The translations under genes and the position numbers were made by a program. From assembly GCA_041649575.1 (NCBI GenBank), contig JBAZMW010000001.1, positions 60,001 through 92,000 of the forward strand: a DNA stretch of 32,000 nt, given 5' to 3'. Numbering within the stretch: the first letter of the stretch is position 1; every line of letters begins with the position of its first letter. This document shows positions 9,528 to 11,648 of the stretch, piece after piece. The notes below the pieces were generated by a model. The model did not search any database, was not told where the DNA came from, and saw nothing but the letters and a program-made list of their open reading frames with translations. The DNA comes from Patescibacteria group bacterium (GTDB taxonomy: Bacteria > Patescibacteriota > Patescibacteriia > 2-01-FULL-39-33).

Positions 9528-9557
9528 TTGACAAAAAATAAACAGGGGAGTTATAAT
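9528..9557 (+). promoter_or_regulatory. Consensus sigma70-type promoter (TTGACA-18 nt-TATAAT)
   Basis: TTGACA at 9528-9533 and TATAAT at 9552-9557, both perfect hexamers, located 16 nt after the recG stop. Confidence 0.6.
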
Positions 9558-9668
9558 AAAATCACTCGTTCTTTCGATGATTGCCTGGCGAAAGGAGGTC
9601 AACCGGCTTTAAAGGCGATTTGTGAAAGAATAACGGTAGGGTTCATACAACAGGAGGAGAATGGTGGC

Positions 9669-9881
9669 ATGGAGACACGGGTGGTAAAAGCGGTGGAGCT
9701 GGCAACAGCAACGGCGGTGGTTTGCTCTGTTCGGGGCTGCGAGAATCGGCTCAACAGAGACAGGGCTGAACTCCTGCAGAGGCATGGGCTGAATTTGACC
9801 TGTGTACACTGCCAGGAGAAGATAGAGGCCGGCGCCTCGCACTTCTTCCAGGGCGGCGAGATCGTCCTCGCGCGGACATAG
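9669..9881 (+). CDS. Small Cys4 zinc-ribbon protein (70 aa), loosely TraR/DksA-C4-like
   Basis: AGGAGG at 9652-9657 lies upstream of ATG 9669. 'CSVRGC-x21-CVHCQ' resembles the TraR/DksA finger 'CxxC-x(17-21)-CxxCQ', but with Cx4C. The region is GC-rich, so ORFs are open on both strands and coding is not certain. Confidence 0.4.
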   Translation: METRVVKAVELATATAVVCSVRGCENRLNRDRAELLQRHGLNLTCVHCQEKIEAGASHFFQGGEIVLART

Positions 9882-9905
9882 AGGATGGTCGAAAAGCATG
9901 CTCGT

Positions 9906-9952
9906 GACGGCTGTCGGACCGGCAAGGTTCGCGGCCGTCGTTTTTTTGTTTT
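9906..9952 (+). terminator. Rho-independent terminator
   Basis: GC-rich hairpin gacggc..(cggacc ggcaa ggttcg)..gccgtc followed by tttttttgtttt. Confidence 0.7.
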
Positions 9953-9957
9953 ATCTC

Positions 9958-9985
9958 TTGACAGCAATCAGAAAATTGTTATAAT
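9958..9985 (+). promoter_or_regulatory. Second consensus sigma70-type promoter (TTGACA-16 nt-TATAAT)
   Basis: TTGACA at 9958-9963 and TATAAT at 9980-9985, immediately after the terminator. Confidence 0.55.
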
Positions 9986-10073
9986 TCATCTTAAGTAGAC
10001 AGTTGTTCCTTGGTCTGGTTCCTTTGGGGGAGCCAGTTGGCTGCGAGTTCAAATAGGATAGGAGTACATTGAG

Positions 10074-10235
10074 ATGAAGATGAGGCTGACACCGCCAGAT
10101 AAGGAAATTATGGAGATACTGGCGGCCCACAAGGGCGGCCATATCACGGTGACGGAGGCAAGCCAGATGCTGAAGACGAAAGTAGGCTTGCCGGCGTCCT
10201 CACGAGAGAAGGAGCACCAGGCTCTGTGCAACTAG
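10074..10235 (+). CDS. Small HTH-like protein (53 aa); not in the supplied ORF track because it is under 60 aa
   Basis: My own translation: MKMRLTPPDKEIMEILAAHKGGHITVTEASQMLKTKVGLPASSREKEHQALCN. 'aggag' lies 9 nt upstream of the ATG. 'LTPPDKEIMEIL...ITVTEASQML' looks like a helix-turn-helix. Confidence 0.35.
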   Translation: MKMRLTPPDKEIMEILAAHKGGHITVTEASQMLKTKVGLPASSREKEHQALCN

Positions 10236-10295
10236 AGCCCTACTAGCGAGCCAGCGAGCGTCCCCAGGTTAGGAACGAGGTCTTCTGATGCGATG

Positions 10296-11648
10296 TTATT
10301 GCGTTGGAAGCCTCTTTTTTTTGCCGATAATTTTAACAAGCTCTCTGATATCACTAATAGAAACAACCCTTGTTTTATTAGTAGCAGCACCCTTGTTTGG
10401 CGGGGAGACGATTTTCTCGAAGTTAAGCTTGAGGGCTTCAGAGATAATTTTTTCCATTTGCGGTACCGATCGAATTTCGCCGGCCAGGCCCAGCTCGCCA
10501 AAAATCAAGAGCCCAGGGCTAACAGGCAGTTCTAAAAAGGCAGAAATTATAGCGGTAGCAACCGCTAAATCCACACCAGGGTCTTTTATTTTCAAACCGC
10601 CGGCAATATTTAGGTAAATATCCTGGTTATTAAGGTTGAGTTTGGCTATTTTGGAAATCACGGCAATAATTAACTGCAGACGATTAAGATCAAAGCCGGC
10701 AGCTTTTCTTTGGGGATAGCCAAAAACAGTTTTGGTGACCAGCGCCTGCACCTCTAGAAAAAACGGCCGTTGACCTTCTATCACTGCGGTGACAACCGCA
10801 CCAGTGGCCGGATAATTTTCTTTTTCCAAAAATACTTGTGAGGGATTGCTGACTTCTTTCAGGCCAAGGTCGGTCATTTCAAAAACGCCTATTTCTCCAG
10901 TGGAGCCAAAGCGATTTTTACTGCTGCACAAAATTTTATAAAAATTTTGGTTGTCATTTTCCAAATACAGGACGGTATCGACCAGGTGTTCCAAGCTCTT
11001 AGGTCCGGCGACCAGCCCTTCTTTGGTGACGTGGCCGATAATGATGATAGGGATGCCAGATTTTTTGGCCACTTCCAGCAGCTGACTGGTAATGGAGATA
11101 ATTTGCGCGGCCGAGCCCAGATTAGAGGCGGGATCATGAAAACGCATAGTCTGGATAGAATCAACAATAGCCAGTTCCGGCTTGACTTCTTCGATGGTGG
11201 CGATGATTTTACCGATGTCGGTCTGGGCCAAAAAACGCAGATTATTAAGATCCAGGTTGATTCTTTGGGCTCGAATCTTTACTTGATTGCCGGACTCCTC
11301 GCCGGAGACATAAAGAACATTTTTTAATTTATCGGAGATTTGCAGGCAGAGGGTCGATTTGCCAACGCCCGGATCGCCGCCGATCAAGATCAGAGACCCC
11401 TTGACTATGCCGCCTCCTAAAACCCGGTCCAACTCTTGAATTTTAGTAGAGAGTCTGGCCTGACTGATGTCGGGCAATTGCTTCAGATCTATTGGTTGGT
11501 CAGGCGCGGTTTTGGGCGTTTTTTTATCGTTGTTTTCAACGGCTTGCTCCTGAATGGTTCCCCAAGAGCCGCATTCCAAACAGCGCCCTTGCCACTTGGG
11601 ATATTGGGCGCCGCATTTGAGGCAGGAATAAATTAAGCTATGGGCCAT
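10296..11648 (-). CDS. radA: DNA repair protein RadA/Sms
   Basis: N-terminal Zn finger 'CLKCGAQYPKWQGRCLECGSWGT'. Walker A 'GGDPGVGKSTL'. 'KNRFG' motif. Lon-like C-terminal domain. Confidence 0.9.
   Translation of the reverse strand: MAHSLIYSCLKCGAQYPKWQGRCLECGSWGTIQEQAVENNDKKTPKTAPDQPIDLKQLPDISQARLSTKIQELDRVLGGGIVKGSLILIGGDPGVGKSTLCLQISDKLKNVLYVSGEESGNQVKIRAQRINLDLNNLRFLAQTDIGKIIATIEEVKPELAIVDSIQTMRFHDPASNLGSAAQIISITSQLLEVAKKSGIPIIIIGHVTKEGLVAGPKSLEHLVDTVLYLENDNQNFYKILCSSKNRFGSTGEIGVFEMTDLGLKEVSNPSQVFLEKENYPATGAVVTAVIEGQRPFFLEVQALVTKTVFGYPQRKAAGFDLNRLQLIIAVISKIAKLNLNNQDIYLNIAGGLKIKDPGVDLAVATAIISAFLELPVSPGLLIFGELGLAGEIRSVPQMEKIISEALKLNFEKIVSPPNKGAATNKTRVVSISDIRELVKIIGKKKRLPTQ

Follow-up and report, generated by a model that had tools for sequence, protein, structure and literature searches.

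The described systems closest to the locus studied here are the TraR proteins of the F plasmid and of phages lambda (Orf73) and P2 (Orf82), which combine in about 70 amino acids a Cys4 zinc knuckle, an IPxxR motif, and a C-terminal helix carrying CQxxxE (structures 5W1S and 6N57; family TIGR02419). R48 of TraR contacts the β′ rim helices of RNA polymerase, while an N-terminal helix with the DxxDxA motif reaches the active site and is critical for the activity of TraR and lambda Orf73 (PMC9239242). The same superfamily includes DksA (PF01258; 1TJL) and short paralogues such as Escherichia coli YbiI (2KGO). We know of no established role for YbiI. Other features of the locus recall morons, which are autonomous promoter–ORF–terminator cassettes of atypical composition, and STAB-SD, a 5′ mRNA stabilizer of Bacillus thuringiensis cry3A reportedly described by Agaisse and Lereclus in 1996. 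The definition of the Bacillus element and its mechanism are given in PMC4113751.

Here we analyzed a window of 32,000 nt (G000:C1:60001-92000) from a Patescibacterium genome of 920 kb (5 contigs, 44% G+C) and compared the stretch between its recG and radA genes with these systems. Taken as a whole, this stretch is most probably explained as two monocistronic genes in a variable recG–radA slot, a TraR-type gene (u1) and its partner (u2), with a STAB-SD-like leader. Feature positions below are those of the window.

Architecture and composition of the recG–radA slot

The stretch between recG and radA consists of two separate units on the forward strand, each with its own promoter, leader, ORF, and terminator. 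Thus, the two independent short transcription units proposed in the initial annotation can be recognized from the sequence. Both of its perfect −35/−10 pairs matched the sigma-70 consensus at 12 of 12 positions in a promoter scan: TTGACA-18-TATAAT for unit 1 (9528–9557) and TTGACA-16-TATAAT with an extended TG for unit 2 (9958–9985). Consensus-like promoters also lie directly after the recG stop codon in relatives. As judged by folding and length comparison, unit 1 has a 5′ leader of about 105 nt (9564–9668), the length first estimated, which contains a hairpin (9568–9631; −24.1 kcal/mol, z −3.2) and the true RBS, GGAGG (9653–9657). It is followed by the u1 CDS (9669–9881), which encodes a 70-aa protein with a TraR/DksA-type Cys4 zinc finger. 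The strong intrinsic terminator expected between the units is formed by a 14-bp stem with a bulge (9906–9939) and a U7 tract (whole element 9906–9952), with a folding energy of −25.6 kcal/mol (z −4.6 against shuffles); a terminator follows u1 in relatives as well.

In unit 2, sequence and folding define a 5′ leader of about 82 nt (9992–10073) with the RBS AGGAG at 10060–10064. The leader hairpin noted earlier indeed folds (10015–10036; −13.7 kcal/mol) and is not conserved in relatives. The u2 CDS (10074–10235), identified as an ORF and by the profile of its relatives, encodes 53 aa with a predicted SHOCT-like helix pair (GGHITxxEA) and the C terminus ...LCN. The unit ends with a second intrinsic terminator (10282–10320), a 13-bp hairpin followed by U8 (−17.2 kcal/mol, z −6.2 against shuffles), into which the final codons of radA, encoded on the opposite strand, extend. 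A proposed pairing between the two ends of unit 1 did not hold: tttcga lies at 9572–9577 rather than 9571–9576, and its 6-nt match to 9889–9894 is trivial and unused in the predicted fold.

The promoter scan detected 9 promoter-like sites in 2 kb, compared to 2.1 expected. Because the whole 920-kb genome contains 40 perfect TTGACA-N16-18-TATAAT sites, a single perfect promoter is ordinary here, while two of them within 430 nt are out of the ordinary for this genome. A search around the island for flanking direct repeats or att-like sites found none.

The leader of unit 1 carries a further element, an orphan extended Shine-Dalgarno (SD) sequence GAAAGGAGGT at 9590–9599 (+ strand), whose 10 nt are perfectly complementary to the 3′ tail of the 16S rRNA, as read from the 16S gene at G000:C4:48787-50269. 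The motif lies 79 nt before the u1 start and has no ATG, GTG, or TTG 3 to 14 nt downstream; the whole genome has just 12 occurrences of GAAAGGAGG. Perfect complements of 10 to 11 nt are present in the u1 leaders of the window's genome and, at the corresponding place, of three sister genera (G010, G018, and G007), 66 to 109 nt before the start, and matches of this quality were reached by only 1 to 6 of 2000 shuffles in each of the four. The leader of G009 contains a 7-mer complement and that of G020 only a degenerate purine-rich motif, while the orphan SD is absent from the u1 leaders of G012, G043, G001, and G002. Other properties of the leader are less constant. Its length is 107 to 120 nt in 6 of 10 genomes, the leader folds across all relatives share no architecture and have ordinary z scores (−2.0 to +0.6), and no uORF is conserved among the relatives' u1 leaders. 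Thus, the orphan SD is the only conserved feature found in the u1 leader, and it is missing from some relatives.

Like STAB-SD of cry3A, the motif is SD-like, can pair over its full length with the 16S 3′ end, and has no translation start of its own, lying well upstream of the start codon in a long 5′ UTR. The two hosts also both possess RNase J, which in this genome matches TIGR00649 with 470.6 bits against a cut-off of 400. In contrast to cry3A, the motif belongs to a Patescibacterium, in whose backbone most genes have no SD, and in the leaders of the window, G018, and G009 it lies apically within a hairpin. By analogy, the u1 leader motif may therefore have a stabilizing effect on the mRNA.

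The raised G+C reported in the initial annotation was confirmed: in 200-nt windows the island reaches 0.54–0.59, as compared to 0.36–0.46 on its flanks. Over 300 nt, the peak (0.593) reaches only the 98th percentile, the genome having more than 50 patches with the same or a higher G+C. The difference from the neighbors is also evident at third codon positions, with a GC3 of 0.73 for u1 (top 1.6% of ORFs) and 0.76 for u2 (top 0.5%) against 0.48 for recG and 0.50 for radA, while the copies of u1 and u2 in relatives have a GC3 like that of their own neighbors. The window's copies of u1 and u2 are thus compositionally foreign. We rejected high expression as the meaning of this bias, since EF-Tu (GC3 0.44) and the ribosomal proteins (0.32–0.50) of the same genome are not GC3-rich. 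An SD 4-mer precedes 10–13% of ORFs with GC3 below 0.55 as compared to 72% of those with GC3 of at least 0.65; the island thus belongs to a GC-rich, SD-led class of genes, often with a consensus promoter, within an SD-poor backbone. The likeliest origin is a replacement of the slot's cassette from a relative with higher G+C.

This arrangement is similar to that of morons, in that both units come with a consensus promoter, a strong SD, and a terminator of their own, lie between conserved genes, and have a GC3 far above that of their neighbors. However, sister genera carry homologous cassettes of native composition in this slot, and the island has no phage context, integrase, or flanking repeats. 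An imported cassette of this kind would be absent from relatives, whereas the module has homologues in the corresponding slot of nine other genomes of the family.

Relatives and family membership of u1 and u2

The closest RadA among the relatives is only about 61% identical to that of the window, and hence there was no congener for comparison. At the nucleotide level, only chance matches were obtained when the island was compared with 40 relatives by BLASTN or with the syntenic loci at word size 7; at the protein level, the window's u1 used as the sole query of a word-indexed search retrieved only itself. Throughout the family, recG and radA remain a convergent pair and enclose a gap of 0 to 1312 nt. 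The filled gaps of six relatives (G010, G020, G018, G007, G012, and G043) contain a small ORF with the pattern C-x2-C...RV.FL...C-x2-C-Q, and those of G010, G020, and G018 contain a second ORF with GG(H/V)ITxxEA. The resulting u1 profile then identified u1 in G001, G002, and G009, always adjoining recG (E 1e-11 to 2e-9), and the u2 profile found u2 in G002 between u1 and radA (E 2e-5). The homologues of the module in the same slot of sister genera, like the orphan SD of the unit 1 leader, were not part of the initial annotation.

Among the 34 genomes of the family, u1 is present in 10 (that of the window and nine others) and u2 in 5, all with u1. Thus, in the genomes searched, u2 occurs only where u1 occurs. 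The order recG-u1-u2 was also found on a metagenome contig (L103). Use of a common insertion site might by itself account for the co-occurrence of the two genes. When about 390 genomes of the class that belong to other families were searched, neither profile gave a match of comparable strength, and public protein collections hold only about eight sequences for each of the two families. In the genomes searched, u1 and u2 are restricted to one family of ultra-small Patescibacteria.

Leave-one-out HMMs built from the relatives only were run on 16,117 stop-to-stop six-frame segments of the window's genome. The u1 HMM ranked the window's u1 frame (C1:69513-69878) first (E 8.1e-7), followed by the resident dksA-like gene (G000:C4:3221-3622; E 0.0038), which encodes a full-length protein of 123 aa and lies beside lspA. 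The u2 HMM also ranked the window's u2 frame first (E 9.6e-5), the next match having an E value of 1.4. Because no Pfam, NCBIfam, or PHROG model matched the window's own u1 or u2 alone, their family assignment rests on alignment with the relatives, and the window's u1 joins the TraR-type family only via this leave-one-out profile.

When compared to solved structures, the u1 profile matched TraR (5W1S, E 1.7e-7; 6N57, E 3.7e-6) and YbiI (E 3.9e-5), while the match to DksA had an E value of 1.1. TIGR02419, annotated as "phage/conjugal plasmid C4 zinc finger, TraR family," was matched by 7 of 10 u1 members (best E 6.2e-8), phrog_54 by 5 of 10, and PF01258 (zf-dskA_traR) by 4 of 7 (best E 5.7e-4). 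The similarity to TraR covers about 50 residues and, beyond the cysteines, includes IPxxR and CQxxxE. Seven residues are invariant in the 10 family members, namely C19, C24, C45, C48, R32, Q49, and E53, and R32 aligns with TraR R48 in the profile alignment. By profile similarity, these comparisons place u1 among the short proteins of the TraR/DksA C4 zinc-finger superfamily, nearest to the plasmid and phage TraR type. This agrees with the early description of a 70-aa Cys4 finger of TraR/DksA type lacking an acidic tip.

The predicted structure of u1, of moderate confidence (pLDDT 70), consists of a zinc knuckle and two helices (residues 30–39 and 46–61), with residues 1–16 disordered. The C-terminal helix 46–61, which follows the second knuckle and carries the conserved CQxxxE, has a pLDDT of 89 in block 41–50 and of 68 in block 51–60. 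A Foldseek search of the PDB and BFVD with this model gave no match with E < 0.9, and PADLOC gave none for u1 or u2. The N termini of the family are 8 to 25 residues long, unconserved, and mostly basic, while that of the window's u1 is not basic.

Like TraR, u1 is a small stand-alone gene beside type IV secretion genes, and its product shares with TraR the length, the Cys4 knuckle, IPxxR, and the CQxxxE helix. In contrast to TraR, every u1 member lacks the N-terminal helix and its DxxDxA motif, and thus u1 is not a functional TraR by the definition of PMC9239242. The cysteine spacing also departs from the canonical CxxC-17-CxxC: it is C-x4-C-x20-C-x2-C in the window and C-x1/2-C-x~21-C-x2-C in the relatives, so that 20 to 21 residues replace 17, and the C-x4-C first knuckle is found in the window and G009. 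Furthermore, R49 and the β′Si3 contact, which are proteobacterial features of TraR, are not kept in u1, whose host is a Patescibacterium. YbiI and other short DksA/TraR paralogues are likewise short C4 zinc fingers of the superfamily; however, YbiI has a longer N-terminal part and no synteny with u1. With DksA, u1 has the zinc-finger signature in common, but it lacks the coiled coil altogether.

The initial annotation was correct in predicting a 53-aa ORF in unit 2, which is coding, but not in calling its product HTH-like. The motif hxxIxxhhxxxKxGxITxxEAxxxh of u2 is also that of the repeated unit in SHOCT-like repeat proteins, and the u2 profile matches repeat proteins that themselves pass PF22746. 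Direct comparison with PF22746 (gathering threshold 27 bits) gave a match below threshold for one u2 relative (E 0.0065) and none for the window's u2, and searches of NCBIfam and PHROGs with u2 matched no known family. The model of u2, of low confidence (pLDDT 66), has three helices. Among the eight family members, a Pro-rich linker is shared, an FGxxCxN-type tail is found in seven, and the final Asn, usually with a Cys two residues before it, is invariant. In the window, u2 is about 15 residues shorter and without the PP and FG motifs, and its end reads CN instead of CPN. Together, these alignments show u2 to be a member of a tiny family with a predicted SHOCT-like helix pair and an invariant C-terminal Asn rather than an HTH protein. 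As compared to SHOCT and SHOCT-like domains (PF09851 and PF22746), whose repeat unit the motif fits, u2 stays below the Pfam thresholds, has a single N-terminal unit followed by the Pro-rich linker, and ends with an FGxxCxN C terminus that is absent from known SHOCT proteins.

Alternative explanations for the two units

The initial annotation had also considered that one or both units might be structured non-coding RNAs, or that their ORFs might be incidental to an RNA function. In line with this, the whole-unit folds are better than those of shuffled sequences (z −3.0 and −4.7), and frames are open on both strands, as had been noted. However, the folding signal stems mostly from the terminators and leader hairpins, and a scan of Rfam 15 gave no relevant match at the gathering threshold or at E ≤ 10, the best hit being of low complexity (E 1.8). 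RNase P RNA and tmRNA were rejected as identities of the units, as both are encoded elsewhere in the genome; the small SRP RNA model had no match in the genome. In the relatives, clear amino acid similarity in the same frame is found where nucleotide similarity is not. In three pairs of intermediate distance (62–77% amino acid identity), two of u1 and one of u2, dN/dS was 0.35, 0.13, and 0.34, respectively, with a synonymous excess in each (Fisher p 0.003, 2e-9, and 0.002, in the same order), and every indel in the compared pairs comprised whole codons. A comparison of G020 with six metagenome contigs yielded too few substitutions to be informative (three synonymous and three non-synonymous in u1, one and four in u2). 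The combination of purifying selection, amino acid conservation, and whole-codon indels in the relatives of both ORFs refutes the RNA explanation by the very condition that the initial annotation had set for it, and we assign it next to no probability; on this comparative evidence, both units are real protein-coding genes. As this selection was measured on pairs of relatives and the window's genus has no close relative, the window's own copies might be decaying remnants, transcribed from strong promoters and no longer under selection. They are the most divergent of their families, with the C-x4-C knuckle and non-basic N terminus of u1 and the truncated u2 with its altered end. We nevertheless find it very unlikely that they are functionless, because both frames are intact with SD sites and start codons, all invariant residues are kept, the C-x4-C knuckle is also present in G009, and the promoters and terminators are perfect.

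For u1, a more serious competitor, although still an unlikely one, is a small basic nucleic-acid–binding zinc ribbon unrelated to RNA polymerase, whose likeness to TraR would reflect a shared knuckle fold. The Lys/Arg-rich, unconserved N-terminal tails of most members, the missing DxxDxA, the noncanonical Cys spacing, and the position of the gene among DNA-repair and competence genes are consistent with such a protein. It accounts less well for a TraR match that extends beyond the cysteines to IPxxR and CQxxxE, for the invariance of the rim-helix arginine, and for the non-basic N terminus in the window. As for u2, the Asn that ends all eight members, together with the Cys that usually precedes it by two residues, is reminiscent of a precursor peptide modified at its C terminus in the manner of microcin C. 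We rejected this identity because the adenylating enzyme MccB/ThiF is missing: no ThiF/MccB-type protein (PF00899) scored above the cut-off in any of the five u2-bearing genomes. In addition, no modification or export genes adjoin u2, and its N-terminal part is predicted to be a folded SHOCT-like unit, which makes a microcin-type precursor extremely improbable.

Proposed function and meaning

Our preferred explanation thus remains that of a TraR-type u1 with u2 as its partner. As u1 keeps only the globular domain and the C-terminal helix of TraR, we propose that it would bind RNA polymerase at the rim of the secondary channel, docking at its entrance and stopping short of the active site. There, instead of mimicking TraR, it may serve as a modulator or compete with the full-length DksA-like factor of the genome, and u2 could be its accessory partner. 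At the level of the mRNA, a 30S subunit parked on the orphan SD might shield the 5′ end from RNase J, as is the case for STAB-SD in Bacillus. In its most extended form, the proposal is that u1 represents a new class of secondary-channel factor, which binds only the rim, competes with DksA-like and Gre factors, and works together with u2; that the two units are exchangeable, self-sufficient cassettes in a locus of type IV secretion, competence, and recombination genes; and that their mRNA is under ribosome parking of the STAB-SD type, the first outside Firmicutes. We consider it rather improbable that all of these parts hold jointly.

To our knowledge, almost nothing is known about transcription regulation in Patescibacteria. 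In no other phylum is the annotated fraction of the proteins as low (PMC12102498). Even if the functional readings fail, two "hypothetical" ORFs are now real genes, and one candidate locus for non-coding RNA is struck off. The orphan anti-16S leader in an SD-poor genome provides a candidate case of mRNA protection by ribosomes outside Firmicutes, and one that lends itself readily to testing. Last, u1 adjoins chromosomal genes for type IV secretion, competence, and recombination, and a family-restricted TraR type without the active-site helix would provide a natural test that separates the part of TraR/DksA proteins that binds the polymerase from the part that acts on the site of catalysis.

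Leaders of the two units and a possible repeated leader elsewhere

The leaders of unit 1 (the zinc-finger unit) and unit 2 (the SHOCT-like unit), both in the slot between recG and radA, were compared with those of relatives. Both window units and most relatives' leaders carry a pyrimidine-rich motif, (A)GTT(G/C)TTC(T/C)TT, 5 to 25 nt 3' of the -10 box (window 9568-9580 and 10003-10013; relatives' loci L034, L013, L022, L062, and L027). In several predicted leader folds, the motif pairs with a purine-rich GGA segment, which in four of these predicted cases is the true RBS. The motif may serve in translation or in stability; alternatively, it could be no more than a feature of transcription start sites. 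The unit-1 leader also contains an 11-codon uORF, MIAWRKEVNRL* (9577-9612), which lies across the orphan SD and has no SD of its own. This uORF was not kept in the relatives whose leaders were compared, while the leaders of two of them (G010 and G002) hold tiny uORFs, both starting with MTG.

Elsewhere in the source genome, G000, two perfect promoters, both on the minus strand (C1:230036-230064 and C1:5322-5350), are followed by near-identical leaders of the pattern TATATAATG(A/G)TTTGATGACCAGAAGGCT.G.G.CGATCGCC... They may be copies of one leader, or else a small RNA.

Contents of the recG-radA slot in relatives

In relatives, parts of the slot are taken up by palindromic, GC-rich repeats (CCCCCTTCGTAAGGGGGAGG type) and, likewise, by repeated units coding 'CHCERPEGAWQSR'. 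They were found at positions 40-140 of L013 (genome G007), at 830-900 of L024 (G020), and between units 1 and 2 in L062/L052 (G002), and both kinds look like REP-like elements. In other genera, the slot cargo differs: L016 (G006) and L027 (G018) carry a 3-methyladenine DNA glycosylase-like gene, L029 (G045) a secreted-looking protein of 184 aa, and L036 (G047) a membrane-like ORF of 110 aa. The gap is nearly empty, at <20 nt, in about 10 genomes.

Resident DksA-like gene and GC-rich genes of the source genome

G000 encodes a full-length DksA/YteA-like protein of 123 aa (locus L078, C4:3221-3622, minus strand) with a C-x2-C-x17-C-x2-C finger, and an lspA-like gene lies immediately downstream. 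It is the canonical secondary-channel factor of G000. A search of this 98% complete genome for SRP RNA with the small bacterial model RF00169, the one model run, gave no match.

Among G000 ORFs of at least 150 aa, counted genome-wide, about 58 have a GC3 of 0.65 or more, where the mean for the genome is 0.50 (examples of GC-rich places are C3:30287-31246, C4:52975-55137, and C1:197569-199400). For the most part, these ORFs are hypothetical or secreted-looking. An SD 4-mer precedes 72% of them, as compared to 10-13% of the ORFs with GC3 below 0.55. The genome's 40 perfect promoters include about 14 that lie immediately 5' of GC-rich stretches. G000 looks like an SD-poor backbone with a class of self-sufficient GC-rich cassettes.
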